IMG/VR virus record: IMGVR_UViG_3300032260_000011
Span: 1-34,917 of that record
Length of the DNA: 34,917 nt
Origin: a virus
Taxonomy: Duplodnaviria; Caudoviricetes
Direction: 5' to 3' (one strand)
Position numbers and translations under genes: made by a program
Notes under the pieces: generated by a model
Told to the model about the DNA's origin: nothing
The model's database searches: none
Seen by the model: only the letters and a program-made list of their open reading frames with translations
Part shown: positions 9,084-33,784 of the stretch, in pieces
How the letters are laid out: the number at the start of each line of letters is the position of its first letter
Position numbering within the stretch: position 1 is the stretch's first letter

Positions 9084-9092
9084 ATTTATCTC

Positions 9093-9269: not shown

Positions 9270-9272
9270 AAT

Positions 9273-9335
9273 TGCAGCCTATCATTCCACCCATTCGGAG
9301 TTATACAGCATAGTTATGTCTAGCCCCTGTTATAT
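9273..9335 (+). repeat. attI-like array head site, copy 1
   Basis: 50/60 ungapped identity to 29466-29525; ends in GTCTAGC-CCCT-GTTATAT with upstream direct GTTA cores. Confidence 0.65.
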
Positions 9336-9337
9336 GG

Positions 9338-9853
9338 CTAAGACACCTTTCTGTGGGCCTCAAGATGGCAAAACAGGTTTTCTATTTCTCTGTGCCATTC
9401 ATCTTTTATATTCATAGCTGGTTTTGTTTTTTCGTAAAATTCTCTTGGGTTGTCACCAAACTTATAGCTCATGGCAATCCAATCAATCACCATGTGGACG
9501 ATGTCATTATAAGTTCCCACCGTCTCATGGTGATGAGGGTTGCTTGCCTTATGGTTCTCCCATGCCTCATCGAATCCACTGTTTTTCTTGTCCTCTGGGG
9601 TTACTGGATAGAAGTTGTCCCTATACTGCACAAACTCATCTTTGCTTAGTTTTGAGAGATCATGCCTCTCAACCTCAGCTCTGATTGTGTGCCATGCGAA
9701 ATCATCGCCTACCCACCACTCTTTCCCATCACACGCTAGCGATAGCTCATCAAATGCTTTGGCTACGTTTTGAACATGCTCCTCTACATAGTCCAAGTAT
9801 TGCCGGGTTGCATCTATGTAATCCTGTACCTGCATTCTGTCTATAAAAGCCAT
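9338..9853 (-). CDS. cassette 1 ORF: HD-like metal-binding protein (DUF5662-like)
   Basis: EH...HDLSK...AWENHKASNPHHHE...MVIDW; GGAG RBS. Confidence 0.7.
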   Translation of the reverse strand: MAFIDRMQVQDYIDATRQYLDYVEEHVQNVAKAFDELSLACDGKEWWVGDDFAWHTIRAEVERHDLSKLSKDEFVQYRDNFYPVTPEDKKNSGFDEAWENHKASNPHHHETVGTYNDIVHMVIDWIAMSYKFGDNPREFYEKTKPAMNIKDEWHREIENLFCHLEAHRKVS

Positions 9854-9876
9854 AATCAAATTATCTCCATGTAGCC

Positions 9877-9963
9877 ATATAACAAAGCAAATCCACCGGA
9901 GTGCTTCGTCATTAGTTGTTTAAATTGGCACCGAGCGCACCCGGTGATTATGCAACGTTATGC
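9877..9963 (+). repeat. attC-like site 1
   Basis: R'' ATATAAC, L'' AATCCACC, L' GGTGATT, R' GTTATGC; imperfect palindrome with extra C in L''. Confidence 0.8.
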
Positions 9964-10167
9964 AGTAAACAATCCGGCATAGTTAGCCCAGAAATATATC
10001 TGGTATGCTAATGCCGGTGTGGAAATGTAGGTATTCGTGAATCCGTGATTCCATATGTGCAGTATCGGCACTGGGGTTTTCATCTCATTGCCAGCGCAAA
10101 TTGAGATAAACTTAAAAAAGAAGTGCAGCGAAATAGTTGCGCTCAAAACAAAAAGTAATGTTTGCAT
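9958..10167 (-). CDS. cassette 2 ORF: small membrane protein
   Basis: Two hydrophobic segments; ATG lies in R'' of attC2 and TAA in R' of attC1. Confidence 0.7.
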   Translation of the reverse strand: MQTLLFVLSATISLHFFFKFISICAGNEMKTPVPILHIWNHGFTNTYISTPALAYQIYFWANYAGLFTA

Positions 10168-10265
10168 AACAATTAGCTCCAGCGGACAGTCAAACGCCGT
10201 CCGGGTTTGTGGTTAATTTATGGCTCAGTGTTGGCGTTTGTCTGCCGCTGAGCATGGCGTTAGAT
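10164..10265 (+). repeat. attC-like site 2
   Basis: R'' GCATAAC, L'' GCTCCAGC then GGAC, inner stem CAAACGCC/GGCGTTTG, L' GCTGAGC, R' GTTAGAT. Confidence 0.88.
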
Positions 10266-10457
10266 TGCATCAAACTCTTCTTCTAGCTTTTGTAGTTCAG
10301 CAGCCAGCCATTCTCGCTTTTCACCCAAATGGCGCTTAAACATGTCATCCGGCACGTTCATCCAATTTCTTTCATCACGCAGCCCATCAAGCGTGCTTTT
10401 GTAATCATCCATTCTGCTCTTTAATAATTTTGCCTTTTTAAACAATTCATTTTTCAT
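10260..10457 (-). CDS. cassette 3 ORF: small coiled-coil protein
   Basis: GGAGG RBS; stop in R' of attC2. Confidence 0.75.
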   Translation of the reverse strand: MKNELFKKAKLLKSRMDDYKSTLDGLRDERNWMNVPDDMFKRHLGEKREWLAAELQKLEEEFDAI

Positions 10458-10480
10458 TTCGTGCCTCCGTTATGGGCGCA

Positions 10481-10570
10481 ATCTAACAACGGCAATCAAG
10501 CGGTGACGTGTTTGTCATCCGCACATTTAATCAAAATGTCTGCACACGCAGCTTATTGCCCACATTAGGT
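10481..10570 (+). repeat. attC-like site 3 (core mutated to ATTAGGT)
   Basis: R'' ATCTAAC, L'' AATCAAGC, L' GCTTATT, R' ATTAGGT. Confidence 0.78.
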
Positions 10571-10876
10571 GTAGTCCCGCATCATGCTCTCAGTAATGAA
10601 ATAGGCGTACTGCTGCGGCCTATTTTCGGCAACCCATTTCAAGAGTTGTTCCAAATCAACTTCTGTGCAGTTATATCCGGCTTCGTTTTTTGCATGTATT
10701 ACCTCTCTACCAAAACCTTCCCACTCTTCTTCTGGCTCGTGGTGGGCGTATTTTCCAGTAGTCTTTCTAATTGACACTTCCATTTCTTCTGCGTATTCGG
10801 TAACTCCACACATAACAATCGGCTCAACCTGACCCGCTGCTTCGGTAGTTGAGTTTTGTCTCTGTTCATCTTTCAT
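10565..10876 (-). CDS. cassette 4 ORF: hypothetical protein, probable start inside attC4 loop
   Basis: AGGGGA RBS before ATG at 10876 (ORF track extends to 10903); stop in R' of attC3. Confidence 0.65.
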   Translation of the reverse strand: MKDEQRQNSTTEAAGQVEPIVMCGVTEYAEEMEVSIRKTTGKYAHHEPEEEWEGFGREVIHAKNEAGYNCTEVDLEQLLKWVAENRPQQYAYFITESMMRDYT

Positions 10877-10930
10877 CTTGGGTGTCCCCTGTGTTCTATT
10901 CACGCGGGCAAGTTAGCCTAAGCGTTATAA
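10810..10930 (+). repeat. attC-like site 4
   Basis: R'' ACATAAC, L'' GCTCAACC then TGAC, stem CCGC/GCGG, L' AGTTAGC, R' GTTATAA. Confidence 0.8.
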
Positions 10931-10933
10931 TGC

Positions 10934-10961
10934 ACTATAACATATAACGCGTTAACATCAA
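10934..10961 (-). promoter_or_regulatory. putative sigma70 promoter reading leftward into array 1
   Basis: TTGATG-16 nt-TATAGT with extended -10 TG on the minus strand. Confidence 0.5.
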
Positions 10962-11002
10962 GTGGTTTACCTATCCCCAACAGTTTGAATATCCCTAATA
11001 TC

Positions 11003-11031
11003 TTGACATTCTTATCAAAGACGACCAAAAT
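11003..11031 (+). promoter_or_regulatory. possible promoter for capsid gene
   Basis: TTGACA-17 nt-CAAAAT (weak -10). Confidence 0.3.
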
Positions 11032-11135
11032 TACTATTGATACCGAATGCTGGCCGGTGAGATGCCGGAAAGCATAGGCTAGTGGGATGCTGGACATCGG
11101 AAACGTGAAAGTTAACCCGACAACAGGAGGACATT

Positions 11136-12317
11136 ATGTCCGATCCCACTATGGCCGATGTAATGAGCGGCGTAAAAGAACTCCGCGAAGAGTTTGAAAA
11201 GAAATCACCCGATTTCGAGAAAATCAACAAGATTGAAGCTGATCTTGAGAAGCATGAAGAGAAAAACCAGGAGCTACTTGCCGAAGTAAAGCAGAGCGAG
11301 AAGCGTGAGGAAGAGATGAAAGAGCGCATGGATGTGCTAGAAACTGAACTAGCCCGTTCAGGCGCTGGTGAAGGCAAGAATTACAAAGAGTCTGAAGAGT
11401 ACAAAGCTCTTGATCTATTTGTAAAGCAAGGCGCGTATGCCATTACCCAAGAACAGAAAGCAATTCTCCGTACTGATAGTGATGTACAGGGCGGTTTCTT
11501 GGTGCCTGTTGAGATGGATAACGCCATTACAAAGAAGATCACCGAGATTTCAAATATTCGGTCTATTGCTCGAGTTCGCACCATTGGTGCTAAATCCCTA
11601 GAAGTACCGGTACGCAACACTATTCCTGCTGCAACCTATGAAGGCGAAGCAGAAGAGGGTGGCGAAGATACCAGCACATACCAGAATGAAACCCTAACGG
11701 CTTTCCGCCAGACCGTCACCATTCCTATTACTCAGGATATGTTGATGGATGCGGCATTCAATATGGAATCCGAGATCATGGGCGATGGTGGTGAATCTTT
11801 TGCTCAGGGCGAAGGTGCTGCATTTGTCGTAGGCACTGGGTTTAAACAGCCTGAAGGCTTTACCGTTGATTCGCGCACTGTAGCAGCTGCACGCACATCT
11901 GCATCATCAGGCACCGTTGGGTTTGATGACATTATGAACCTGACTGGTGATCTGAAGACTGGTTACAATCCTGTTTACGTGTTCAATCGCACCACTCTAG
12001 CCTTTCTGCGCACCCTCAAGGGCGGTGATGGGCATCCGTTGTGGCAGCCAGGAATGAATGGCGTAGTGATGAACACCATCAACGGCTTCCCTTACCTAAT
12101 CGCCAATGATATGCCTGATATCGCAAGTACTACCATTCCGGTAGCATTTGGCGACTTCGCACGTGGTTACACCATTATTGACCGTACCGGAATGGCCGTG
12201 ATTCGTGATGAGGTAACTCAGAAGAAGAAGGCAATCGTAGAATTCACCTTGCAGCGTTGGAATACTGGTCAGGTTACTCTGCCAGAAGCCATCAAACTGC
12301 TAAAAGTTAAAGCTTAA
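11136..12317 (+). CDS. major capsid protein (HK97 fold, N-terminal coiled-coil delta domain)
   Basis: GGFLVP, LKGGDGHPLWQPG, VAFGDFARGYTIIDR, EAIKLLKV; AGGAGG RBS. Confidence 0.95.
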   Translation: MSDPTMADVMSGVKELREEFEKKSPDFEKINKIEADLEKHEEKNQELLAEVKQSEKREEEMKERMDVLETELARSGAGEGKNYKESEEYKALDLFVKQGAYAITQEQKAILRTDSDVQGGFLVPVEMDNAITKKITEISNIRSIARVRTIGAKSLEVPVRNTIPAATYEGEAEEGGEDTSTYQNETLTAFRQTVTIPITQDMLMDAAFNMESEIMGDGGESFAQGEGAAFVVGTGFKQPEGFTVDSRTVAAARTSASSGTVGFDDIMNLTGDLKTGYNPVYVFNRTTLAFLRTLKGGDGHPLWQPGMNGVVMNTINGFPYLIANDMPDIASTTIPVAFGDFARGYTIIDRTGMAVIRDEVTQKKKAIVEFTLQRWNTGQVTLPEAIKLLKVKA

Positions 12318-12327
12318 GGAGGCTGAC

Positions 12328-12738
12328 ATGGCTGAATTTGACCTACATTCAAATGTAAAGCAGGAAGTTGCCCTGGATGCCCAGGACATTACTACCGATA
12401 CCACTACTGTTGGTAATATCATTGATACTCGTGGTTTTGAGTCCCTTGAGTATTTTATCCAATCAGGAACTATCACTGATGGCGCTTATGCTCTGAAACT
12501 GGAGCAGGGAGATGACTCTGCATTGGCTGATGCCGCAGATGTTCCAACTGCTGAGGTCTTGGGTGTTCTAACGGGCTTTGTGGCTGCTGATGATGATGCC
12601 GCTAAGCGTGTTGGTTCGATTGGAAAGAAGCGCTACCAGCGTCTTTCCATCGTATCCACAAGCACCTCAACAGGTGGAACTAAGTTCTCATCTGTGGCGG
12701 TACTGGGTAATCCACAATCTGCTCCTACTGACGAGTGA
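12328..12738 (+). CDS. putative capsid decoration/cement protein
   Basis: Follows MCP with AAGGAGG RBS; IIDTRGFES...GKKRYQRL motif. Confidence 0.65.
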   Translation: MAEFDLHSNVKQEVALDAQDITTDTTTVGNIIDTRGFESLEYFIQSGTITDGAYALKLEQGDDSALADAADVPTAEVLGVLTGFVAADDDAAKRVGSIGKKRYQRLSIVSTSTSTGGTKFSSVAVLGNPQSAPTDE

Positions 12739-12743
12739 TAGCT

Positions 12744-12769
12744 AAGGGGAGGTCTTCGGGCCTCCCTTT
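12744..12769 (+). terminator. intrinsic terminator-like hairpin after capsid genes
   Basis: AAGGGGAGGTC-TTCG-GGCCTCCCTTT. Confidence 0.7.
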
Positions 12770-12784
12770 AATTGAGGGTAGCTA

Positions 12785-13042
12785 ATGACAACCAAGATTA
12801 AAATCAGATTTCTTGTGCCAGGAACATGGGGCGATGAGCCGCAGGACCCTATCTTTGACGTAGAGGCCGGTGAGGAGCGCGAAGTAACTCCACGCCTTGC
12901 TAAAGATGCAACTGATGCAGGTAAGGCTGAATACGTTAGAGAGAAGCAGAAGCCTGGGCCAAAGCCTAAAGCAGAAGAACGTAAAAAGCCTGGGCGTAAG
13001 CCTAAAGCTGGCCCTGTAGAAAAAGCTGAAGGTAATGGCTGA
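12785..13042 (+). CDS. hypothetical protein with Lys/Pro-rich tail
   Basis: Duplicated KPGxKPKA; GAGG RBS. Confidence 0.7.
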   Translation: MTTKIKIRFLVPGTWGDEPQDPIFDVEAGEEREVTPRLAKDATDAGKAEYVREKQKPGPKPKAEERKKPGRKPKAGPVEKAEGNG

Positions 13043-13592
13043 TTGTATTTACCGTTTCGTTTCAGAGAAAGCTTCGCCGGTTACATTGGCGGTAATGAAG
13101 TCATATCTGAAAGTTACCGCAACAGCTGATGATAAGCTGATTCAATCAATGATTGACGCGGCTACTAAATGGGGCGAGAAATACACAGGGCGAGACTTCA
13201 GAGCTATTACATGGGAGCTTTTGTTGGATGGGTTCACAGATCGTATTGAGTTAAGACGTGATCCTGTAGATTCGATCATAACTGTAAAGCATCTCGTTAG
13301 CGCTAGCCTTGTGACTGTAGATGCGCCTACTTATTACCTGAAAAAGCTTACTCAATCTTCTGAGGTGCTGTTAAACGAGGATCAAGAGTGGCCAACAGAT
13401 ACAGATGATCGAGAGCAGGCCATAGAGATACGGTTTGTAACAACTGGGTATCAATGTCAGGACTCAATCATTGAAGCAGTCGAGCGGCATGTGGCATGGT
13501 GGTATAGGAATAGGGGTGATTGCTGTAATGAATCAGCAAAGAACTCTGGCGTAACCATCATATATGATCAATTTAGAATATCGAGAGTTTAG
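13035..13592 (+). CDS. head-tail connector/adaptor (gp6-like)
   Basis: PVTLAVMKSYLKV...DDKLIQSMIDAA...EKYTGR...WWYRNRG. Confidence 0.85.
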   Translation: MADCIYRFVSEKASPVTLAVMKSYLKVTATADDKLIQSMIDAATKWGEKYTGRDFRAITWELLLDGFTDRIELRRDPVDSIITVKHLVSASLVTVDAPTYYLKKLTQSSEVLLNEDQEWPTDTDDREQAIEIRFVTTGYQCQDSIIEAVERHVAWWYRNRGDCCNESAKNSGVTIIYDQFRISRV

Positions 13593-13603
13593 GGGTAAAA
13601 ATT

Positions 13604-14047
13604 ATGAGCGGTGAAAGTGTACTTAACTATTTTGAGCAGCCTGGTAGTGATCTGGATAATAAGCTTGTTCTTGGCGGTTCTGTTGAGACTACCGGTGGAG
13701 CTGATTTAAAGACCAAGCTTGTTACTGTGGCAATTGGCGATATATCAGCGGCTGGGAGCGTTTGGGTTGTTCCTGGAGTTGCCGGAACTATCGTTAAAAT
13801 CAGCAATGTAATTGATGGTGCTATTACTGGTGCAGCCGCAGGACTAACATTCGAGATTGGCGGAACAGCCGTAACAGATGCTGCTATTTCTATCGTAGTT
13901 AGTGGGTCTGCTGCTGGTGTTGTTGATCAGTCGACACCTACTGCATTGAATGTAATCACCGCTGCTGAGGCTATTGAGATTGTAAAGGATGGCGCGAGTA
14001 CTGGCGTTTCTAACGGCGTTGTAACTTTCGAGATTCTGCCTAGCTGA
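13604..14047 (+). CDS. putative virion accessory protein
   Basis: Gly/Ala/Val-rich beta composition, within head-tail module. Confidence 0.65.
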   Translation: MSGESVLNYFEQPGSDLDNKLVLGGSVETTGGADLKTKLVTVAIGDISAAGSVWVVPGVAGTIVKISNVIDGAITGAAAGLTFEIGGTAVTDAAISIVVSGSAAGVVDQSTPTALNVITAAEAIEIVKDGASTGVSNGVVTFEILPS

Positions 14048-14048
14048 T

Positions 14049-14468
14049 ATGGTTGATACCGTACAAGTATTGCTTGTTGAGGATGAGTGGGCAGAAATAG
14101 CAAGAGGTGATTTTTCTGGCTATATCTCCAACAATACAGAGCACACTTTACGGTATCGATTAGGTGAGCAACAACCTGCTGATGATGACTGTTTTGGGCA
14201 TAGGCTGCACCCTCAAGACCGTGTTCCGTTTACCGTTGGAGATGGAACAAGCCTGTGGGCAAGAGGATTTAGCGCACAATCATCAATTGCATTAACAAGA
14301 GGAAAGTGTGGCGCTGAGCTGGTTGTTGCTGGCGAAACATTTCCGGTAAATCAGGATGGATTGGAGGATACTTTGAGGCGAATTGAAAAACAATTAAGGA
14401 TTGCCAATGTTCACCTGTCTTCAATGAGCGGTCAATGCGTTAGCAGCGAGGACGTGATTAATGGCTGA
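14049..14468 (+). CDS. hypothetical protein
   Basis: Tightly packed in operon. Confidence 0.65.
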   Translation: MVDTVQVLLVEDEWAEIARGDFSGYISNNTEHTLRYRLGEQQPADDDCFGHRLHPQDRVPFTVGDGTSLWARGFSAQSSIALTRGKCGAELVVAGETFPVNQDGLEDTLRRIEKQLRIANVHLSSMSGQCVSSEDVING

Positions 14469-15063
14469 GCAAATTAGAGACGGTGAAGGATCGGGGCGTT
14501 TAGCTGGGGTTGACAAGAATCATCGGCTAAAAACCAATGCTCAGTCAAATTTTGCTGAAGAGATCGCCGCTCAAAATGAGAGGGCATATATCCTTCATGG
14601 TGAGTGCCATCTTTCTGCGTCTGCAAATGGCGGGTTTCTTGCCGTCAGAAATGACAGTACTGATGTATTGCTCGCAATATCACGCATTTATATTGACCCA
14701 CATTTGCTTAGTGGTGACTTAATTATTTATCAAGTAAAAAACCCTACCATATCGAATGGAACGGACATCAGCGAGACTGGAATCGTCAATAAAAATTACA
14801 CTTCAAGGCGCAGAATGATTGGCACCTTATGGATTTCCGATGGTTCTTCAGACTTGACATATACAGATGGCAGTAACTATCACGCATTCTCGGCGCAGTC
14901 ATTAACATCAAAACAGCGTGACATGAAAGGTACAAACATCATTGGGCAGAATGATGTATTACTTTTTGGATGGAAAACAGCTGATGGTAGTAATGCAGTA
15001 GATGGGGAAATCGTATCTTTCAGTGTTAATTTGTATGAAGTCCCTGTTGAGGAGATTGGATAA
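14461..15063 (+). CDS. putative virion accessory protein, paralogue group
   Basis: N-terminal IRDGEGSGRLAGV motif shared with next gene. Confidence 0.7.
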   Translation: MAEQIRDGEGSGRLAGVDKNHRLKTNAQSNFAEEIAAQNERAYILHGECHLSASANGGFLAVRNDSTDVLLAISRIYIDPHLLSGDLIIYQVKNPTISNGTDISETGIVNKNYTSRRRMIGTLWISDGSSDLTYTDGSNYHAFSAQSLTSKQRDMKGTNIIGQNDVLLFGWKTADGSNAVDGEIVSFSVNLYEVPVEEIG

Positions 15064-15623
15064 TGGGCTGGCCTATTGAAGATGGAAGAGGAACTGGAAA
15101 CAGGGCAAGAGTTAATACAGAGGGGCAGCTCGAAGTTTTAGCAGTTTCTATCCCTGAAGATCGGCATATAAATTCAGAACACGAAGCAGTTTGGTCGTTA
15201 CCTTTTGAGGGAATTGATCCAGTTGCGGCTGATGATTATTTTTTCTATATACAAAATACAGGTTCCAAAAATCTAGGTCTTACTGATTTTCGTATATCTT
15301 CTACAGTGGCTGGCACAGTAGAGATACATTACGTGACAGGAGTTCCTATTTTCACTGCTGGCGTTGATGTTGAGCCTGTTAGTAGATTCTTAGGAAGCAA
15401 TAATGATCTTGGTGCCATAGTTAAAACTGACACTGACACTACAGGATTGGTCAATGAAGGGGTTCTTTTTTATATAGATATAGATGTTGCTGGAAAGCTT
15501 GAGCATCTTAAAACATCATCAAATATTATCATTCCACCAGGGCAAGGGATCGCCATGTTATGGGATCAGGCGACCGGCATATTGAAGGGCGTGGTTAGCG
15601 TAGTTGAGTTACAGGAACCATAA
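15063..15623 (+). CDS. putative virion accessory protein, paralogue group
   Basis: N-terminal IEDGRGTGNRARV...GQL motif; TAATG coupling. Confidence 0.7.
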   Translation: MGWPIEDGRGTGNRARVNTEGQLEVLAVSIPEDRHINSEHEAVWSLPFEGIDPVAADDYFFYIQNTGSKNLGLTDFRISSTVAGTVEIHYVTGVPIFTAGVDVEPVSRFLGSNNDLGAIVKTDTDTTGLVNEGVLFYIDIDVAGKLEHLKTSSNIIIPPGQGIAMLWDQATGILKGVVSVVELQEP

Positions 15624-16051
15624 TGCCTGTTCAAGCAGAAATTATTGATCCAGCAACTGGACAAAAAGCCAGTGTTACACCGAGAGGTCAGCTTATTGTT
15701 GGTAGTATATCTTTCTCGGAGTCATTTATTGCCAATGTGGATACTGCTAATACGGCATTTAATTTGGTGTTACCAAAAGGTAATAAAAAATTTATTATTA
15801 CTGGCATAATATTAGTTGGTGACAAGAGTATAAATACAAATATAGATGCAGTTGTTATTATATATGAGTCTTCAACACTAGCTGGTATTGTAGAAGATAA
15901 CGCATTGTTAGATGTAAACGTTTCAAGGAGCACATCATTGCCAGTAATAGGGCTTAATTTGATCACTGAAAACGCAGCTAAATTTATTAATGTCAAATCA
16001 TCAGATGTTAATATTAAAGTAACGCTACTGGGATTTTATATCACCGAGTAA
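15623..16051 (+). CDS. putative virion accessory protein, paralogue group
   Basis: N-terminal IIDPATGQKASV...GQL motif; TAATG coupling. Confidence 0.7.
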   Translation: MPVQAEIIDPATGQKASVTPRGQLIVGSISFSESFIANVDTANTAFNLVLPKGNKKFIITGIILVGDKSINTNIDAVVIIYESSTLAGIVEDNALLDVNVSRSTSLPVIGLNLITENAAKFINVKSSDVNIKVTLLGFYITE

Positions 16052-16069
16052 CCAATGTGGAGTTTATAA

Positions 16070-16330
16070 ATGGCTGATCCTTTTTCCGAACATGAGTCTG
16101 GCCTTAGTTCACCAGCTACAAATGCGTTTGCAATCACGCCGCATGATACTAATGACCTTGCAACAACGCCAAGATTTTTAAATATTACGGTTGCTGGAAA
16201 TATCAAAGTAGATACTGTAGGCGGTGATACAGCAGTAGTGTTGGCAGTTCCTGTTGGCCGGTTCGACCTTCGTGCTACAAGGGTATATGCAACTGATACA
16301 ACAGCAACAGGTATTGTAGGGCTTTACTGA
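16070..16330 (+). CDS. head spike base protein (RcGTA Rcc01079-like)
   Basis: MADPF...LSSPA..AFAITP.D..DL...RVYATDTTATGIVGL. Confidence 0.75.
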   Translation: MADPFSEHESGLSSPATNAFAITPHDTNDLATTPRFLNITVAGNIKVDTVGGDTAVVLAVPVGRFDLRATRVYATDTTATGIVGLY

Positions 16331-18268: not shown

Positions 18269-18270
18269 CT

Positions 18271-20015: not shown

Positions 20016-20026
20016 GGAGCTATGTA

Positions 20027-20419: not shown

Positions 20420-20438
20420 TTAAATAAGTGAGGGCAAA

Positions 20439-25831: not shown

Positions 25832-27381
25832 TGCCTTTAGAGATACCAGGCAGCGCAGCAGAAGTTGAGAATCGGGCCAAGACGGATGTTCAGCGTGAGC
25901 TTCCTGAAGCAAATCCGTTCTTAAAAAACTCATGGCTTGGAGCGCTAGTTACTTCATTTGCTAATCGCATATTTGATTTCTATCTTCAGTTATTAGCAGC
26001 AATAAGAGAGAATTTTCCTGATACTGCTACTTTGGATTATTTAGAAAGATATGCAGCTATCTGGGGAAAACAGCGTCTTGCCGCAACACAGGCTACTGGC
26101 AATGCTGTTGCAACAGGTACGGCAGCAGCCGTTATCCCAAGTGGAACGGCCTTTGCTTCATCAAATGGCAATTATGCATCAACAAGTAGTGCTACCATTT
26201 CGGCGCAGTCAATAAGTATATCGAGCATTACTCGATCTGGCCAAACCGCAATTGCAACAAGCGCAAGCGATCATGGTTTAGCAAACAATGTTCCAGTCAC
26301 AATCTCAGGAGCAAACGAGGCAGAATACAACGTATCTAGCGCAGACATTACAGTCACTGGGCTGAATACATTTGAGTATCAGGTGACTGGCTCACCATCT
26401 ACTCCGGCGACTGGAACTATTCTTGCTGCGTTTACATCTGCTAGCGTACCAGTTCAATCTGATGACTTTGGGGTCGTCGCCAATCTTGACTCCGGTGAGC
26501 AGATCACGCTGCAAAGTCCAATCGTTAATGTTGACGATGTGCTTGCCATTGATTTTGGAGCTGTTGGCGGCGGCACAGACCAAGAAGCTGATGATTCTTT
26601 AAGAGAAAGAATGCTTAACCGGATTCAAAACCCGGTTGCGCATTTTAATGAATCAGACATAGAGGATAAGATTAAAGAGATAGCTGGCGTTACTCGGACA
26701 TTTATTCAAAAAGCTGGCACTGTTATCGGGGTTGAATCTGTAACATCAATCACAAGAACCGGGAATATTGCGATTGTCACATTATCATCATCCTTAGACA
26801 TTTCTAGCGGGCAAGCTGTAACGATTACAGGCGCTGCTCAATCAGATTACAATGTAACAGATGCTATTATCTTAGTAGAGAGTACAACTGTATTTTATTA
26901 TATAGTTGCAAACACTCCTGTTACTCCAGCTACCGGCTCGATTACTTCGAGCATTTCAATAGCAATAGGAACGGTAACTATTTATTTTATGCGTGATGAT
27001 GATGTTAACCCAATACCTACCGCATCAGAAGTTACTACGGTTAAAAATAAAGTACTAGAGATTACTCCTGCAAACACATCAGATATGGATGTTGTAGTGG
27101 CAGCGCCTACCGCTGTGCCTGTTGACTTCACCTTTACTGATATTACGCCTAATACAGCTACGATGAAATCAGCAATTGAAGCCAATCTAGAATCATTCTT
27201 TGCAGAAGACACTGAAGTTGGTGTGGATGTTGATGAAGATGCTTATAGGTCAGCTGTCTTCAATACTATTGATACGGAAACAGGAGCAGAAGTGTCAACA
27301 TTCACTTTGAGCACACCATCAGGCGATATATCGATTGCAATCGGAGAGATTGCCACGTTAGGAAATGTGGTATTTAGCTAA
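25831..27381 (+). CDS. baseplate J-like protein (Mu gp47-like) with two inserted repeat domains
   Basis: FPDTA..DYLER, GGTDQEADDSLRER, GVTR, GTVTIYF, GEIATLG. Confidence 0.88.
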   Translation: MPLEIPGSAAEVENRAKTDVQRELPEANPFLKNSWLGALVTSFANRIFDFYLQLLAAIRENFPDTATLDYLERYAAIWGKQRLAATQATGNAVATGTAAAVIPSGTAFASSNGNYASTSSATISAQSISISSITRSGQTAIATSASDHGLANNVPVTISGANEAEYNVSSADITVTGLNTFEYQVTGSPSTPATGTILAAFTSASVPVQSDDFGVVANLDSGEQITLQSPIVNVDDVLAIDFGAVGGGTDQEADDSLRERMLNRIQNPVAHFNESDIEDKIKEIAGVTRTFIQKAGTVIGVESVTSITRTGNIAIVTLSSSLDISSGQAVTITGAAQSDYNVTDAIILVESTTVFYYIVANTPVTPATGSITSSISIAIGTVTIYFMRDDDVNPIPTASEVTTVKNKVLEITPANTSDMDVVVAAPTAVPVDFTFTDITPNTATMKSAIEANLESFFAEDTEVGVDVDEDAYRSAVFNTIDTETGAEVSTFTLSTPSGDISIAIGEIATLGNVVFS

Positions 27382-27980
27382 TGCTTTTTGAACGCAGAAA
27401 TATAGAGCAATACACCAATAGTCTGGCAGATTATCTGCCTGGTGGGTGCTTGTTTGCGTCCAAGTCTATTCAGGATTCTAATTTCCGTAAACTGCTTACA
27501 GGTATGTCTGGTGAATTATTTAGAGCTAATGGGCTACTCAAGGAATATAGTGAGCAGATATTGCCAGATCAGACAGTTAAGTTTATTGAGGAATGGGAGT
27601 CAGCTCTTGGTATTCCTGATGCCTGTTTCAATGGAACCGGAACTCTGGATGAGAGGCGCAGGGATATTTTAGTGAAACTTGCTGCGCTTGGAGTACAGAC
27701 AGCTCAGGATTTTGAAGATCTTGGTGATACTTTCGGTATTTCTGTGACGGTTGCTTCAGGAAGAGATGGGATAACCTTTCCTCTGGTTTTTCCTGTTTTA
27801 ATGTTTACAACAGTAACTGAGGCAAGGTTCACAATCGTTATCAAATTTACGGTTCAGGAGGCTAATAGATTTACGTTAACCTTTCCGTTTACTTTCGGTG
27901 ATGGAAATATAGCAATTCTCGAATGTTTGTTTCGAAAGTTGAAACCAGCAAACTGCAATCTGATTTTTCAACAGGTGTGA
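27381..27980 (+). CDS. baseplate wedge protein (Mu gp48/DUF2313-like)
   Basis: LPGG, EWESALGIPDAC, LECLFRKLKPA. Confidence 0.85.
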   Translation: MLFERRNIEQYTNSLADYLPGGCLFASKSIQDSNFRKLLTGMSGELFRANGLLKEYSEQILPDQTVKFIEEWESALGIPDACFNGTGTLDERRRDILVKLAALGVQTAQDFEDLGDTFGISVTVASGRDGITFPLVFPVLMFTTVTEARFTIVIKFTVQEANRFTLTFPFTFGDGNIAILECLFRKLKPANCNLIFQQV

Positions 27981-27983
27981 TAT

Positions 27984-29093
27984 ATGCAGGATTTAAACGA
28001 CAAAATAACAGGTAACACTTTAACGGCGGCAGAGTGGAACGAGCCACCATCAGAGATCCAAAATGTAATTGAAAATACAGGGCAAACGCTTTCAAGTGGG
28101 GATTTAAACCAGCTTGGAAAAGGGATAGCCATGTATGCCAGCAATGGTGATGCTTACACAGATACAGGTATAGCAGATGCTTATGTGTTGAGTGTAATCG
28201 GTAGTAAACAAGCGCCGCCAGATCTAGTTAATTTAATGAAATTCAGGTTCACGCCTGGAAATGATTGCACAGGTGCATGTACTGCTAATCCTGCTGGACT
28301 TGGTGTAACTAATATTAAATTGGCTGGCGGTACAGTTAACCCAGTGGCGGGTGACATATCAACCTCGGCAGATTGCGAATTGGTATATAAAACATCCCCA
28401 TCAACTCATTTAGAGTTAACAAACCCACAGGTTTCAGGCGGTCCACCCACTGTTCAAATATTTACATCAAATGGAACTTACAATAAGCCAGCCGGATTGA
28501 AAAAGGCTATTGTTGAAGTTATCGGTGCAGGTGGTGCAGGTGGCGGCGCATCAACCACAGGGGTAGGTGAAGCCTCGTCTGGTAGTGGTGGTGGTGGCGG
28601 CGGGTATTCTAGAGAGATGCTTTCAGCTTCTGCTATAGGGTCCAGTGAATCGGTTACCATTGGGGCCGGTGGCACCGGCGTGGTTGGTGGCAATGGTAAT
28701 GATGGAGCATCAAGTTCTTTTGGTTCATTGCTTTCTGCAACAGGCGGGACAGGTGGGCTAAGAGAGCTGGCATCAGCCGTTTTATCTGGTACAGAGGGAA
28801 GTATTGGCGGAAATGGTGTTGGTGGAGATGTAAATGTTCGAGGTAGTGGTGGTACGTTTAGCTTTCAGCAGGGTACAACTGACGTAACAAATCCAGTAGG
28901 TTATAGTGGCGCTGGAGGTAACTCAGTTCTTGGCGGCGGGGCCCCTTCTGAAAAAGCCACTACCACAAAAACTGGTGTGGATGGTGGTGATTACGGAGGC
29001 GGCGGAAGTGGTGGCGCAAACGCGGAGAGCCAAACCCAGGTAGCGGGTGGTGATGGTGCAGACGGTCTTATTATCGTAACGGAGTTCTATTGA
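27984..29093 (+). CDS. tail fibre protein with glycine-rich C-terminal domain
   Basis: N-terminal EIQNVIE...LNQL, IFTSNGTY, GGGGGG runs, GADGLIIVTEF. Confidence 0.8.
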   Translation: MQDLNDKITGNTLTAAEWNEPPSEIQNVIENTGQTLSSGDLNQLGKGIAMYASNGDAYTDTGIADAYVLSVIGSKQAPPDLVNLMKFRFTPGNDCTGACTANPAGLGVTNIKLAGGTVNPVAGDISTSADCELVYKTSPSTHLELTNPQVSGGPPTVQIFTSNGTYNKPAGLKKAIVEVIGAGGAGGGASTTGVGEASSGSGGGGGGYSREMLSASAIGSSESVTIGAGGTGVVGGNGNDGASSSFGSLLSATGGTGGLRELASAVLSGTEGSIGGNGVGGDVNVRGSGGTFSFQQGTTDVTNPVGYSGAGGNSVLGGGAPSEKATTTKTGVDGGDYGGGGSGGANAESQTQVAGGDGADGLIIVTEFY

Positions 29094-29094
29094 T

Positions 29095-29415
29095 ATGAAA
29101 GCTTTAATACATGCTGGCATGGTTAGGCAAATTGTTGAGGATGGCGAAGAGTTTCCAGTGCATCCAAAGTTAACTTGGGTTGATTGTGGTGCAGAAGTTA
29201 AAACAGGGTATAGCTATGATGGTGATCAATTTACAGCGCCAACTGTTGAGCCTGAACCTGAACAGCCAACCACTGATGAGCTGTATGACAGAGGAATGCG
29301 GAATAATAAGATTATTAAAGCACTTGTATTATGCATTAATGATGGATCTATTGTCCCAGGAGCTAATGCGACACCTGCGCAGCTGAAAGCAGCAATTAAG
29401 GGGAAAATGGAATAG
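29095..29415 (+). CDS. putative tail fibre assembly/accessory protein
   Basis: WVDC...V..GYSYDG..F..P motif after fibre gene. Confidence 0.65.
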   Translation: MKALIHAGMVRQIVEDGEEFPVHPKLTWVDCGAEVKTGYSYDGDQFTAPTVEPEPEQPTTDELYDRGMRNNKIIKALVLCINDGSIVPGANATPAQLKAAIKGKME

Positions 29416-29465
29416 GGAAAGGTCATTGTGAGGACCAGAAAAAGCAACTAATCCTCTAAAGCTGG

Positions 29466-29528
29466 TGCAGCCTATCATCCAACCCGTTAGGATTTAGGCT
29501 GCATAGTTATGCCTAGCCCTTGTTAGGT
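29466..29528 (+). repeat. attI-like array head site, copy 2 (includes TGCAGCCTA/TAGGCTGCA hairpin)
   Basis: 50/60 identity to 9273-9332; ends in GCCTAGC-CCTT-GTTAGGT. Confidence 0.65.
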
Positions 29529-29684
29529 GTCTAGTGCTGCCTTGCACCCAAGCAGCACTATTCGAAACAGGAGCGGCTTGTGCTTTGCCCAATTACCGAG
29601 GGTTTGCAAGCTCTGCCCCGTCATCTCTGAAACCTGGGAGAGGCTTTTAAGCCCATCCGCTTTGGCTTGTTCCGCTGCTGTCAT
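29523..29684 (-). CDS. cassette 5 ORF b: small HTH-like DNA-binding protein
   Basis: GLKSLSQVSEMTGQSLQTLGNW helix-turn-helix pattern; ATGA coupling to upstream ORF; stop in GTTA core. Confidence 0.7.
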   Translation of the reverse strand: MTAAEQAKADGLKSLSQVSEMTGQSLQTLGNWAKHKPLLFRIVLLGCKAALDT

Positions 29685-29848
29685 GTAACGTCCCTCATGT
29701 CCCAAACGGTTTCCTTCATATTTGTAACCCAGCAGGCAACAACATCAGTCCATTGCATTTTATTTTCTGCGAATTCAACAGCGGCTGCTTGACTCGGGAA
29801 AAATTTGGTTTCTTCGGTGTTCTCGGTAATCGTGGTTACATTAAACAT
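29681..29848 (-). CDS. cassette 5 ORF a: 55-aa hypothetical protein (not in ORF track)
   Basis: GGAG RBS; MFNVTTITENTEETKFFPSQAAAVEFAENKMQWTDVVACWVTNMKETVWDMRDVT*. Confidence 0.65.
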   Translation of the reverse strand: MFNVTTITENTEETKFFPSQAAAVEFAENKMQWTDVVACWVTNMKETVWDMRDVT

Positions 29849-29886
29849 TGACTTGCTCCGTTGGTGTTTGTCTTAACTTGTAAACA

Positions 29887-29933
29887 ATTATAGCAAACTA
29901 TTTGAAGGATGCAAGTATTATTTCAAACTATTT
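29887..29933 (-). promoter_or_regulatory. cassette-internal sigma70 promoter with repeated operator-like sites
   Basis: TTGCAT-16 nt-TATAAT with extended -10 TG; CAAACTATTT at 29894-29903 and 29924-29933. Confidence 0.65.
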
Positions 29934-29943
29934 TCAAAAAGAC

Positions 29944-30030
29944 ACCTAACAAAACAAATCAAGCAGACGGGTTAAAGCGCGGCGCTTTTAATAGGCATGG
30001 GTGCGCCGCAGCTTATTTGTAATGTTAGGC
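29944..30030 (+). repeat. attC-like site 5
   Basis: R'' ACCTAAC, L'' AATCAAGC then AGAC, L' GCTTATT, R' GTTAGGC. Confidence 0.85.
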
Positions 30031-30297
30031 TGCACGCCCATCGCGTATCTTTTCAGCATCTTCCTGGCTAAGTCCGTAGCCTATACACTCCATTGGATCA
30101 CGCTCCCGAACTGTAAGATATTCTGGAAGCTCATCAGGGAGGTTTTCACAATTCCAGAACCACCAGCAGTCTCCCATGCTTTGAGGCGTAGCATGCTGGT
30201 AGGTTATTCCTAGGTGCTTCATTACCTCTTGCGGGTGCTTACATCCGGTGTCATTAGATGTAGCTGAGGCAAATAAACAGTACGTTAAGTCTTTCAT
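30025..30297 (-). CDS. cassette 6 ORF: hypothetical protein (start 30297 preferred over 30333)
   Basis: AGGA RBS before ATG AAA GAC; HPQ..MKHLGITYQHATPQSMGDCWWFWNC; stop in R' of attC5. Confidence 0.7.
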   Translation of the reverse strand: MKDLTYCLFASATSNDTGCKHPQEVMKHLGITYQHATPQSMGDCWWFWNCENLPDELPEYLTVRERDPMECIGYGLSQEDAEKIRDGRAA

Positions 30298-30324
30298 ATC
30301 AAATCCTATGGTAAATTTTGTGAA

Positions 30325-30395
30325 GCCTAACAACGCGCTTCAACTCTGACACAAGCTTCGTTCCTCGCTTGTGCAGGTTAAGCGCCACGTTAGGC
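30325..30395 (+). repeat. attC-like site 6
   Basis: R'' GCCTAAC, L'' CTTCAACT then CTGAC, stem ACAAGC/GCTTGT, L' GGTTAAG, R' GTTAGGC; 71 bp. Confidence 0.9.
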
Positions 30396-31025
30396 GCTTA
30401 CCTGATCGCCGATTTCGCAGCAAAGCACCCTATCAATCCTGTTCCAATACGGTGGCCTCAATCGTACTTGTCTGTATCCGCTATCATCTGGTAAGTAGCG
30501 CATAGCCAAGCCATCTTTTACCAATGAGCAATCATTATCAGTCTCGGGATATTCAATGCTGATTATTTTCCCATAGCCGTAAGCTCTTTTTTTGCCAAGA
30601 TGCGTAAGCTCACGCAGTAATCTTTTACACTCCTTGCGGTTGCCGCTTGCGTAAGCAACAAGCCGTTGAGTCAATAGCAGAGGCATTGGTGTATTCCAGT
30701 CTCGATATTGGCCGTTTTTGAGATTAGGCGCTCCGGTTGATATGTCTGCTTTTCCTTGCCTAAACCGCTTGCGCCAAAACTGCAAGTCCTCGCCTTGATG
30801 ATCATCTGGAAACAGCGCTGAAGCAGCCCATACCCACTTGTCACCGATGTTCTTGCGCAACAACGGTAAAGGTACGTGATCTGGCCTATCATCTCTACCA
30901 AGCCCTTTATTGGCTCCTACCCTTGGAGCTAATACCCAGCTTAATAATGCATCAAGATGTAGCGGCTCATTTGGATCAATGTAAACGCCTGAACCATCGA
31001 GATTAAAAATTACTTTAAAATGCAC
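30390..31025 (-). CDS. csf3: type IV CRISPR-associated Csf3 (Cas5 family)
   Basis: LHLDALL, PLPL, WAASAL, LTHLGKKRAYGYG glycine loop, RPPYW. Confidence 0.85.
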   Translation of the reverse strand: MHFKVIFNLDGSGVYIDPNEPLHLDALLSWVLAPRVGANKGLGRDDRPDHVPLPLLRKNIGDKWVWAASALFPDDHQGEDLQFWRKRFRQGKADISTGAPNLKNGQYRDWNTPMPLLLTQRLVAYASGNRKECKRLLRELTHLGKKRAYGYGKIISIEYPETDNDCSLVKDGLAMRYLPDDSGYRQVRLRPPYWNRIDRVLCCEIGDQVSA

Positions 31026-31774
31026 TAGACCACCTCCTTATCTCTAAGCCTCGAATATTGCCTTGGATAATACATTTTCATGTGCTCCATATCGCCATGA
31101 GTCATCCCGCCCAACGTAGGTAATGCCCACGACAATCGTATATCTTCTGGTTGGAAAAACCTGTTTTTGAAATAGCACGGATTGATCTCAATATCATTGA
31201 GAACCATGTAGGCAAACACATCATCAGCATTCCAAATGCTTAATGGATTACACCTCATTACTCCGCTTTTCAATTTATATGTATGGCCACGCTTACATAG
31301 GTTTAATTTTCTAGCCCTACTTTCAGCCATCCGTAACCCAAGCATTACACCATTACAGCCAAGCTCAAGCCTGGCATCATCAAGCACAGATATAAAGCCA
31401 TCTTTAGTGAGTGAGTGAGATTGAGCACATAGATTGTCATGCCCAATATTGCACTTACAAGCCGCCTCCCAAATTGAAAAATCAGGCTCTACAAGAATAT
31501 AATCAAACCCATTGTTTTGTTTTATTCGCTCAGCGTATTCTCTTTTTTCCGGCCAATCGCAATCATCAAACTGTATTAGTATTGGTAGGCTATCATCTAT
31601 TGATCTAGCAAGATGAGTCATTGCCGTTGAATCTTTGCCTGTTGACCACGACAAGCAGTAATCATTGTCTTCAATCGCGGATGTTATTATCTGCTTTGCT
31701 TTACTTAGCTTTGCTTTAAAAGAGTAGCTTTTGGCGTGGAGTTTCCACTCCATTATTTTCATCTCTTTTTTCAT
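31025..31774 (-). CDS. cysH: CysH/PAPS-reductase-like (PP-loop) protein of type IV-B locus
   Basis: SWSTGKDS PP-loop, GLRMAES..R, CNPLSIWNADDVFAY. Confidence 0.85.
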   Translation of the reverse strand: MKKEMKIMEWKLHAKSYSFKAKLSKAKQIITSAIEDNDYCLSWSTGKDSTAMTHLARSIDDSLPILIQFDDCDWPEKREYAERIKQNNGFDYILVEPDFSIWEAACKCNIGHDNLCAQSHSLTKDGFISVLDDARLELGCNGVMLGLRMAESRARKLNLCKRGHTYKLKSGVMRCNPLSIWNADDVFAYMVLNDIEINPCYFKNRFFQPEDIRLSWALPTLGGMTHGDMEHMKMYYPRQYSRLRDKEVV

Positions 31775-32435
31775 TTTTCAATTCCTCTTGGCTAGGCAGC
31801 AGATAGCATAAAAACGCATACAATGAGCTATTAACTTTAGGCTTTGCCCATGCTTCAAACTCCATCCATTTTGACATCCCAACTTTACGCATTACAAAAG
31901 ATGGGCAATCTAGTGATTCCATTACTAATCTCCCAATGCCTAGCCTTAGTGCAGCATTTAAAACGCCCCACCAGTCAAGCACAAGATGTTCATCTGAGCA
32001 GTCCACTACTCTAGATTCAAATAGCCATTTATTTTGTCCTGGTGAATAGTTGATAGGCGCTCTCAATGCGCCATGTTTTTTATAGCTGGTGGTTGCATAG
32101 CCACACCATGGAGGCTTGTTTCCACCAGATAAAACAGACTCTCTCACCTGCACTCTGCTTAGTTTTTTAAACTCAGACTGAATGCATATCCAAGATGACA
32201 TCCTTTCCCATTTGTATTTGAGTGCAATGTAAGCATCTATGCTCACCATATTGCTGCTTGGTGCATTTAGCGTTTCGCCATCACAAAATGATTTACCAAA
32301 TAGCTTTTTTCTTGGCAAGCATTGCCCGTGTAATCCAGTAATTGCGCACACGCCATCAACCAGATCACCATCATAAGCGGGACGATCAAGGTCATCTCTT
32401 GACAGCCCTGAAGCAATCAAATTAACCGGGTGCAT
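31716..32435 (-). CDS. csf1: type IV Csf1 (Cas8-like large subunit)
   Basis: N-terminal GVCAITG...SFCD..S..V, PPW....TTSYKKH; lies between csf2 and cysH. Confidence 0.65.
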   Translation of the reverse strand: MHPVNLIASGLSRDDLDRPAYDGDLVDGVCAITGLHGQCLPRKKLFGKSFCDGETLNAPSSNMVSIDAYIALKYKWERMSSWICIQSEFKKLSRVQVRESVLSGGNKPPWCGYATTSYKKHGALRAPINYSPGQNKWLFESRVVDCSDEHLVLDWWGVLNAALRLGIGRLVMESLDCPSFVMRKVGMSKWMEFEAWAKPKVNSSLYAFLCYLLPSQEELKNEKRDENNGVETPRQKLLF

Positions 32436-33729
32436 TGATAGCACCTATCTCAATTAAGTAATCAATGATTGCCTGCTTATTATCGCCAAGATAATCAATA
32501 TAGGGCTTAGGGTCTGGCGCATCTTTAATGTCAATCGCCACTTTGCCAAGCCCACGTCTGTTTTCAGCCCCGAGCATACCGCGCTGTTGAAGCAATGCTA
32601 ATCCGCATCCAAGAGCAGATAACTCCAACTCTGAAGCGTGATTGTCGTAGTCAATACCCCCTGTCAGTCTCGCCCCAGACTTGATGCACTCAGTATTGGC
32701 AATCATGCCAGCATGAGCATCATCATCGCCTTTGCCCTCATAATCATCGCGGCGCGTGAGAAATTCCCACTCCATAAGTTGAGCGGCTGGCACTTGACCG
32801 CTACCCCACTCATGGCAGCACGGCCTTAAATCACCAGCTTGCATGCGTCCTGGCAATATCCTATTGCCCATTGCTGCACCCAATAACGACAACGCTGGCA
32901 ACATATCTCTCAACCGGCGTAGGCCATCTGTACGTAAAGCTCCATGCTTGCCTAGCTCCTTGTTAAGTCCATCCATTACCTTGCTTTGCTCCTCAAGCAC
33001 TCCGCCAGCGTAGAGCGCGTGAAAGAACCAGATATTTACTGGTGGGTTATCCTTGCGCGGAACTAGGCCGATTGATCTAAGCAGATGATCTGCCAGCAGA
33101 TCGCGCAGTTGACCGCGAACAGCATTACCGGCATAAAAAGGCAGGCTTAATATACGGCCTGTTTCGGTTATCGCTTGTCGTCTCCTGAACAGCGTGGCGT
33201 TGCCTGCTTTGGAGTCTGACCCATGCGCCAACGGTGATAGTAATTCAGCATTGATGCTGATCTTGTAAGTAGGTTGAGCCGTAATTGTGCTGTCATCAAC
33301 GCCATCAGCATCAATAGTTATCGATTCTACGGCCTCAATATAATCATCATCTTTTCTGAGGCCAGCTATCATCGCCACAATTCGTGGGTGATCTCTTATC
33401 CAGTTTAATACTGCGCCTGCATCATCTGCATTAACTGCGGCCATAAATGCCGCAGTCCGCTTGCCACCAACATACTCAATAGAGGCATCAACCGCCTTGC
33501 ATAAATGCTCTATCGCATCTATTAAAGTTGGTTGTGCAAAGCTTTGTACAATGCGATCAGCAAAAAACCCTTCAAAATGGCGGTTTACCTTCATGCTGGT
33601 GGCTGATTTTATGCTTCGCACCATGTCCAATACGCCCTGCAATGTACTGACATCGCGCCTAACAATAGGGTCAACCAGACCGCCTACAGCGGCGCGGGTT
33701 TCATTTTTTTTGGCTTCGTTCGTCATCAT
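32422..33729 (-). CDS. csf2: type IV Csf2 (Cas7) with N-terminal helical, probably Cas11-like, domain
   Basis: LSPLAHG, GNATLFRR, LPFYAGNAVRGQLRD, LYAGG, LSLLG...ILPGR, FLTRRDD, LGAENRRGLG; about 150 extra N-terminal residues. Confidence 0.88.
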   Translation of the reverse strand: MMTNEAKKNETRAAVGGLVDPIVRRDVSTLQGVLDMVRSIKSATSMKVNRHFEGFFADRIVQSFAQPTLIDAIEHLCKAVDASIEYVGGKRTAAFMAAVNADDAGAVLNWIRDHPRIVAMIAGLRKDDDYIEAVESITIDADGVDDSTITAQPTYKISINAELLSPLAHGSDSKAGNATLFRRRQAITETGRILSLPFYAGNAVRGQLRDLLADHLLRSIGLVPRKDNPPVNIWFFHALYAGGVLEEQSKVMDGLNKELGKHGALRTDGLRRLRDMLPALSLLGAAMGNRILPGRMQAGDLRPCCHEWGSGQVPAAQLMEWEFLTRRDDYEGKGDDDAHAGMIANTECIKSGARLTGGIDYDNHASELELSALGCGLALLQQRGMLGAENRRGLGKVAIDIKDAPDPKPYIDYLGDNKQAIIDYLIEIGAINAPG

Positions 33730-33784
33730 CTTTTCTCCAAGTTCATCTGTGTTTTACGGCGGCGGGTTACCCTTATCGTTACAC
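33657..33784 (+). repeat. attC-like site 7 (closes the type IV-B cassette; overlaps csf2 start)
   Basis: R'' GCCTAAC, spacer AATAG, L'' GGTCAACC then AGAC, stem CCGCC/GGCGG, L' GGTTACC, R' GTTACAC; GCGCCTAAC is the exact reverse complement of cassette start GTTAGGCGC (30389-30397). Confidence 0.82.

Follow-up and report, generated by a model that had tools for sequence, protein, structure and literature searches.

The stretch of DNA analyzed here (hereafter the window) is the entire viral record IMGVR_UViG_3300032260_000011 (G000; 34,917 bases, 67% complete), which belongs to a tailed phage (Caudoviricetes) and carries two arrays of the integron cassette type with seven attC sites between them. 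The plus strand encodes the terminase, portal, protease, capsid and contractile-tail proteins, and ninG and ninB lie on the minus strand at the right end. Array 1, with four attC sites, is located between the protease and capsid genes, and array 2, with three, between the tail-fibre region and ninG. As the first-pass annotation of this DNA had claimed, every cassette gene lies on the minus strand (11 of 11 open reading frames, ORFs). Judged from the geometry of the sites and from natural breakpoints between sister contigs, this is the attC sites' bottom strand, and the usual layout, in which a top-strand gene ends at the R'' box, was not found in the window. No intI gene adjoins either array, and two or more neighbouring attC sites with no integrase nearby define a cluster of attC sites lacking an integrase (CALIN). 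By its sequence, the arrangement is therefore a CALIN that resembles an integron cassette array without its usual gene-on-top-strand layout, and not a complete integron.

The attC sites lie at 9877-9963 (attC1), 10164-10265 (attC2), 10481-10570 (attC3), 10810-10930 (attC4), 29944-30030 (attC5), 30325-30395 (attC6) and 33657-33784 (attC7), and span 71-128 nt. In all seven we found two pairs of inverted boxes (R''/R' and L''/L') able to form a single-strand hairpin, and one unpaired C on the plus strand, placed 9-10 nt past the AAC of R'' and followed by a GAC/GAG motif, with a partner arm of 8-10 nt preceding the R' core. Both the extra C and the motif had been described in the first-pass annotation, and both held at every site. 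The same geometry is seen on the top strand of the aadA7 control (Qi 2023, Table S3), whose C lies 9 nt past the AAC, and the top-strand rule given by Nivina 2016 (PMC5027507) places the extra base in the arm that holds the AAC. Crossover would occur at the G|TT of R'. The first-pass annotation overstated the uniformity of the core: at attC3, R' is ATTAGGT and the core A|TT in place of GTT, a G to A change that has likely impaired this site. A custom attC scanner requiring an extra C on the 5' arm detected six of the sites on the plus strand (scores 10.7-13.7) and none on the minus strand, against two weaker hits (8.6 and 9.8) in 10 Markov shuffles of the window; the seventh was recovered once the spacing was relaxed. 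An earlier scanner with a fixed 6-nt spacer was dropped, having produced 8 hits against 5-10 in shuffles. The variable loops were not alignable by MAFFT.

Each cassette would begin with the TTA that follows one core, contain its gene or genes read from right to left, and close with its own attC body. Array 1 opens with an attI-like entry site on the plus strand (9273..9332) that lacks an attC body and has its core G|TTA at 9329 and further GTTA boxes at 9300 and 9313, followed by four cassettes with minus-strand genes. Cassette 1 (9330..9957, 628 bp, ending in attC1) carries a DUF5662 gene (9338-9859; Pfam PF18907, E 7.5e-17) that stops 8 nt inside the cassette. In cassette 2 (9958..10259, 302 bp, attC2) a gene for a 69-aa protein (9958-10167) has its ATG within R'' and its stop at the core TTA; the protein has three homologues at 57-61% identity. 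Cassette 3 (10260..10564, 305 bp, attC3) codes for a 65-aa helical protein (10260-10457, stop at the core TTA), for which all matches in the ESM Atlas scored below 0.9 and are leads only. The gene of cassette 4 (10565..10924, 360 bp, attC4) spans 10565-10876, likewise stops at the core TTA and has its likely start and N-terminus inside attC4; its product has five homologues besides itself. Array 2 opens with a second attI-like site, also on the plus strand (29466..29525), with the core G|TTA placed at 29522, further boxes at 29486 and 29506, and a 9-bp hairpin at 29466-29504. Its minus-strand cassettes are cassette 5 (29523..30024, 502 bp, attC5), with two small genes (29523-29684/29705 and 29681-29848), cassette 6 (30025..30389, 365 bp, attC6), with a gene at 30025-30333 that stops at the core TTA and whose product has 486 relatives at E<=0.001, and cassette 7 (30390..33778, 3389 bp, attC7), with a four-gene type IV-B-like Cas operon. 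Beyond it lies ninG (33779..34450, minus strand; PF05766, E 1e-37), the fixed right flank of array 2, whose stop codon forms the right half of the insertion point. The gene calls in cassettes 3 and 5 were made from open frames and a composition score only, and no defence model matched the DUF5662 protein or any of seven small window ORFs in or beside the arrays.

The stops at 9958, 10260, 10565, 29523, 30025, 30390 and 33779 are formed exactly by the TTA that follows the first base of the core, and that of cassette 1, at 9338, lies 8 nt further in, as had been noted before. In six of the seven cassettes the last gene terminates at the core TTA. The broader claim that all cassette ORFs do so stood for 6 of the 11, all of them last genes, and failed for cassette 1 and the upstream genes of cassettes 5 and 7; the fraction is this low because the multi-gene cassettes 5 and 7 (two and four genes) use the TTA for their last gene only and cassette 1 stops 8 nt in. 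The stop at 33779 had also been counted as that of a cassette ORF, but ninG is a phage backbone gene, and in the sister contig L002 this 65-nt flank stands behind another attC. Seven of the nine cores end a minus-strand frame of at least 55 codons, as against 5.9% of the 389 [GA]TTA sequences across the window (binomial p 8e-8). These seven include the ninG stop, and no gene terminates at the core at 10924. The attC hairpins of cassettes 4 and 7 hold a likely ribosome-binding site together with a short leader and the likely start codon, which is located in the attC loop.

Sister contigs showed turnover at these cores, and three of them, L002, L003 and L034, bear further inverted arrays. The entry site of array 1 forms a 68-nt repeat with 29466-29533, being identical to the array-2 copy at 44 of 54 positions and to L034 at 53 of 54; that of array 2 is identical to L002 at 53 of 54. 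The four copies (two in the window, one each in L002 and L034) agree up to G|TTA and are then followed by four different first cassettes. In three copies (window 9329-9340 and 29522-29533; L002 5022-5033), not in L034, the first cassette starts with GTTANNTGNCTA, which possibly reflects a target preference. At the right flank, L002 has a different attC body and then, from the core onward, the same 65 nt as array 2. Other contigs of run X1 branch from the window at 9332/9333, 29526 and 33777, and in this run the left site and the right flank are joined by two alternative paths; different cargo lies between the two in at least three X1 contigs and in L002. The fixed, body-less left site with its core and repeated GTTA boxes thus behaves like an attI, for which it is a candidate. 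When fold-tested, the array-1 entry site gave no stable fold (z +1.5) and the array-2 hairpin a z of -3.8; this 9-bp hairpin, which sits between convergent genes and is decayed in the other copy, is a possible two-way terminator without a U-run. When the left site was searched for in five further genomes or records, two weak matches resulted, and the one inspected lay inside an ordinary gene. In L034 (2570-2600) the fourth cassette retains matching ends, its attC body apparently deleted. L002 belongs to a phage with an unrelated structural module: window 34780-34917 and 33777-33841 are identical to its 6810-6920 and 5589-5650, it retains only the end of ninG, and a second inverted array lies just past the stretch where the window ends.

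The R'' side of each site matches the 5' end of its own cassette at 6-9 of 9 positions (9 of 9 in cassette 1), compared with a mean of 3.9 over 42 other pairings, and this complementarity of cassette ends beyond the core shows the segments to be units. At its left each array has a body-less site and at its right a full attC body, and the pattern of breakpoints among sister contigs indicates that an attC body moves together with its left-hand segment, which is what a plus top strand would predict; this argument is independent of any strand convention. If minus were the actual top strand, the cassettes would be canonical, with the stop in R''. Consistent with this, each gene ends on the minus strand in a RYYYAAC-like box like canonical genes, the two strands differ little in folding energy, and some attC sites have weak strand selectivity (Nivina 2016, PMC5027507). 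However, the extra base would then be on the wrong arm at 7 of 7 sites, the body-less site and the full body would be at the wrong ends of each array, sister contigs have sequence in common to the left of the left core and to the right of the last R' core, and genes 4 and 7 start within the body on their right. We therefore regard a minus top strand as very unlikely, and the original assignment of plus withstood the comparison on extra-base geometry and sister-contig breakpoints alike.

The largest cargo, that of cassette 7, consists of a cas11-csf2 fusion (32422-33729; PADLOC Cas7, 3e-42) whose start and first ~25 codons lie in attC7, csf1 (31716-32444; PADLOC Cas8, 1.5e-10), a cysH-like gene (31025-31774; PF01507, PAPS_reduct, E 1e-14) and csf3 (30390-31025; PADLOC Cas5, 4e-39), which stops at the core TTA; all four are on the minus strand, and the NCBIfam matches for the Cas genes all fell below curated cut-offs. 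The structure predicted for Csf2 (predicted local distance difference test score 85.7) had type IV Csf2 proteins as its best Foldseek matches (E 2e-9 to 1e-8), and its profile matches Cas7c and the Csf2 of PDB 7jhy. There is no separate cas11 gene, and the N-terminal helical domain of Csf2 matches Cas11c weakly (E 0.007). We detected no closely spaced direct repeats in 29400-34917 and no dinG or cas10 among the scanned ORFs of this incomplete contig. The cassette looks like subtype IV-B as described by Taylor 2021 (PMC8175902; Mycobacterium sp. JS623, PDB 7jhy), in which csf1-, csf2-, csf3- and cysH-like genes likewise share one operon, with no CRISPR array seen here; it differs from that system in the Cas11-like domain fused to Csf2, the order csf2-csf1-cysH-csf3 and the attC packaging. 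Among the 62 homologues aligned out of 443 hits, 59 have no more than 10 residues before position 29 of Csf2, and P0002 is the only one that shares the attC-coded leader.

The Cas module was found at 51 viral loci. With the threshold used, which overlooks 2 of the 7 window sites as well, 45 of these loci gave no attC hit, and L124, L129, L131 and L136 gave a single hit each. In L114 and L116 a Cas11-Csf2 module lies between two attC hairpins with the extra base on the 5' arm of the coding strand and ends complementary at 10 of 10 positions, so that the polarity there is canonical. The bottom-strand extra base in these loci is a C, which integrases accept according to Larouche and Roy 2011 (PMC3053210). 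The L114 sites lie at 5870-5972 and 9262-9376 (also about 5508-5625), and its module, at 51% identity, is just behind a terminase gene, as in L116; csf3 of this canonical cassette reads through R'' and stops in the loop. In L001 attC-like hairpins at 5207-5315 and 9655-9780, recognized by eye and unscored by the scanner, flank a type IV-B-like module with a B12 radical S-adenosylmethionine gene in place of cysH.

These leaders and attC-free modules raise the alternative that the segments are not mobile, and that empty attC hairpins landed at secondary GTTA sequences, namely the TAA stops of resident phage genes, where they are now relics. A backbone gene, ninG, does stop at a core, the attC-coded leaders are on proteins whose relatives begin about 25 residues later, and most viral Cas-module loci (the 45 of 51 given above, at the same threshold) lack an attC hit. 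Yet the two ends of each segment are complementary well past the core, and in at least three X1 contigs, as in L002, a shared left site and right flank enclose different cargo. As an account of the arrays this is quite unlikely, though such a route may describe how cassettes first arise.

A pattern drawn from this attC family yielded 66 viral loci with 63 distinct sites, and the bacterial sample comprised 21 loci in 802 genomes (two taxa, namely the G004 class and the G007 phylum; one pattern). Of the viral sites 43 were inverted, 12 canonical, 3 mixed and 5 uncalled; the same classifier called none of the 21 bacterial sites inverted, 19 canonical and 2 mixed, and left none uncalled (Fisher p 7e-10, clear calls only). 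Both mixed bacterial calls were canonical on inspection, and another pattern gave 22 bacterial loci, four with convincing sites, all canonical. Strand calls by longest ORF were too noisy and were superseded by the composition score. Right-hand genes of inverted sites stop exactly at the TTA in 20 of 37 cases, and a start within attC is a minority feature (4/35). Purine skew and counts of Shine-Dalgarno (SD) sequence plus start did not separate inverted from canonical sites, a bottom-strand SD being present at 6/43 inverted viral, 2/12 canonical viral and 2/19 canonical bacterial sites. The strand tabulation that the first-pass annotation had proposed thus came out in its favour (43/63 viral against 0/21 bacterial sites inverted), and the mirrored architecture is borne out by geometry and breakpoints. 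Its idea of a distinct, phage-specific class was right in that inversion dominates viral contigs and too strong in that the 12 viral sites, those of phage TJE1 and the Cas module of L114/L116 are canonical; in this sample inversion is phage-enriched, not phage-defining. In a Desulfobacteraceae genome (L014, 1108-2820), a group II intron-type reverse transcriptase/HNH ORF, recognized by motifs, lies just before an attC.

The arms of attC4 and attC7 are 39-40/47 identical to bacterial sites, and those of attC5 nearly identical to sites in L003, L007 and L015. The earlier view that these are not captured bacterial cassettes accordingly holds for the layout, the same families being canonical in bacteria, and not for the attC sequences, which are of bacterial families. 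One could suppose that the phage took up bacterial cassettes of the ordinary kind and that these were flipped through top-strand recombination, which occurs at low frequency (Nivina 2016, PMC5027507), and attC families common to bacteria and phage fit with this. A flip, however, turns gene and attC together, leaving their relative polarity canonical, whereas in the window each gene runs opposite to its own attC; moreover, the cargo of sister arrays includes phage families, and the small window ORFs and DUF5662 lacked a defence-model match. We give this explanation hardly any credence.

With regard to the enzyme, IntI exceeded the cut-off in only 1 of 40 inverted-array records and in none of the 10 records with a completeness of 90% or more (the search covered 50 of the 60 wanted records). 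Shuffling of attC-like sites by another enzyme, either a phage Xer-type recombinase off the contig or phage recombination proteins acting on similar hairpins, would account for this absence of IntI from the window and from 39 of these 40 records, and for the lack of resemblance between the left site and what adjoins the two bacterial intI genes checked. Against it, breakpoints fall at the IntI core despite differing body sequences, the arms match attC sites of IntI-bearing bacteria, and IntI1 recombines phage attC sites with bottom-strand preference, as reported with 17 phage CALINs by Qi 2023 (PMC9892861; TJE1, PH101, P12002L). Furthermore, a true IntI is paired with inverted sites in the temperate phage G833, where intI lies beside one inverted site and a second, in the opposite direction, lies in the other of two divergent early arms. 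We consider another enzyme unlikely. In G833 (L193, 3160-4554 and 12333-12582) the IntI adjoins the phage's own integrase. The likeliest source of the recombinase is a host integron integrase, since there is no IntI here, it is rare in inverted-array records, and bacterial genomes with the attC5 family (G004, G005) have IntI over the cut-off. Taken together, the arrays are probably integron-type cassettes with genes on the attC bottom strand, moved at G|TT by such an integrase, a reading that builds on the observed geometry, polarity, end complementarity, core turnover in sister contigs and viral enrichment.

How such cassettes would move and be expressed, and why they have this polarity, can be proposed as follows. 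The integrase would fold and cut the minus strand at R' and so release a circle, its gene ending on the core, for insertion at the fixed left site. Given that the TAA stop is the cassette's own first three bases, its last gene would end correctly wherever the cassette lands. The left site would be the tail end of leftward transcription, in array 2 from ninB-ninG, which reverses the logic of the bacterial cassette promoter Pc. The empty site of array 2 would be the ninG stop codon facing the tail-fibre region, and each new cassette would lengthen the leftward early operon at its tail. As the preferred reason for the polarity, genes co-directional with the replication fork would have their coding strand as the lagging-strand template. 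In lambda the origin lies upstream of the nin genes; were this so here, minus would be the lagging-strand template, and the two opposite sites of G833 would fit. Folding and excision of the bottom strand are highest on that template according to Loot 2017. A second and speculative reason is a firewall against host cassettes.

Candidate promoters are few. A weak sigma70-like match on the minus strand (10934..10961; 9/12 with TG) points into array 1 from its far end; the promoter scan found 6 sites in the region against 5.0 in shuffles, and the terminator scan likewise did not exceed shuffles. A sigma70-like motif seen by eye on the minus strand within cassette 5 (29886-29914) was not listed by the scan, and a similar motif precedes the related attC in L003. 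The same stretch is the sole match of the window to a GenBank phage (H6/1, 51 nt, intergenic), which showed no attC in 12 kb.

Several points weigh against this interpretation. This 67%-complete contig and G001-G003 yielded no tyrosine recombinase (PF00589). Next to bacterial intI (L028 and L031 were checked) nothing matched the left site, and its L-like box is 1 nt nearer the core than in the Shewanella attI given by Qi 2023. The strands are scarcely separated by folding energy, the bottom strand being lower at 5 of 7 sites with differences of -1.6 to +1.4 kcal/mol; the folding check that had been suggested was thus of little help, and plus was identified as top by geometry and breakpoints. 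End complementarity is symmetric and cannot itself tell the strand, and GC skew follows the coding strand, so that it is uninformative on fork direction in the window. The X1 contigs that match the window without any difference over array 1 (9328-11500) and array 2 (29489-33806) possibly come from its own source and so are not an independent sample. In the survey, the viral sites are non-independent, related records being counted apart unless the site was identical, and were drawn with a pattern from this family; gene strands outside the window came from a home-made composition-score caller that missed two window genes and miscalled two bacterial sites. Finally, in PH101 unannotated plus-strand ORFs also lie near the sites.

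Array 1 itself lies in a 2.3-kb minus-strand island (8804-11136) that interrupts the head operon between the protease and capsid genes. To the left of its entry site, after the prohead protease gene, are two small minus-strand ORFs (9093-9269 and 8859-9083; region 8859..9269), for which profile scans gave no family above the cut-off, and a plus-strand sigma70-like match (11003-11031) lies 5' of the capsid gene. An Rfam scan of the window gave a single match, judged to be chance, and no CRISPR repeat.

The arrays share with bacterial ones the R''/L''/L'/R' hairpins, the extra base in the L'' arm, the G|TT core and the complementary ends (Nivina 2016, PMC5027507; Larouche and Roy 2011, PMC3053210). 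Unlike those described there, they have the gene on the bottom strand, the stop in the 5' core instead of R'', the start in or near the cassette's own attC and no intI, and new cassettes would be promoter-distal. Phage attC clusters have already been published: like the phage CALINs of Qi 2023, ours are attC arrays with no adjoining intI, and unlike them, as far as they are described in the portions of that text covered, the two arrays share an entry site and have stops at the core. Those portions make no mention of genes inverted against attC, which the figures or the Dryad annotation file may show. In TJE1 the sites are canonical. In PH101 both sites assayed with IntI1 have plus as the top strand and three annotated neighbours on minus, the bottom strand, and IntI1 recombined both better as bottom strands (Qi 2023). 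The PH101 genome (L183, KR534323, 30500-33000) also has two duplicated segments, after 30970 and 32366 (31480-31585 and 32880-32985). Integrons with inverted intI, of Spirochaetota and others (Ghaly 2021, PMC8352920; Ghaly 2022, PMC9668308), are a known orientation variant, and in G833 intI and the adjoining cassette gene have the same direction; that variant concerns the direction of intI relative to the array, and not of genes relative to attC. In the parts covered of the 'reverse integron' literature (PMC8352920, PMC8618304, PMC8876359, PMC9668308) there was no precedent for genes inverted against attC, and our literature search, which covered few subscription papers, found no description of such inversion as a class.

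A top-strand gene has been treated as the rule that makes cassettes expressible (Nivina 2016, PMC5027507). A large viral pool that breaks this rule with attC sites of bacterial type means that phages probably recruit host integrases to move accessory genes of their own; expression would then follow a different logic, and useful exchange with the arrays of the host would be limited. PH101, a cultured phage whose sites have been assayed, appears to have the inverted layout at least partly. Software that matches each gene to the following attC of its own strand will pair inverted cassettes wrongly. A single type IV-B Cas operon exists bare of attC, in a canonical cassette and in an inverted one bearing an attC-coded leader, offering a natural series for the origin of cassettes. 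More tentatively, and we would not favour it as it stands, phages may keep a cassette pool of their own with polarity opposite to that of the host, using the host's integrase and attC families, the inversion serving both lagging-template placement and as a firewall, and cassettes being made afresh by the addition of attC to phage operons. If the firewall is real, cassettes from the host, including defence genes, would end up antisense within the operon of the phage, and those of the phage would stay unexpressed behind the host Pc.

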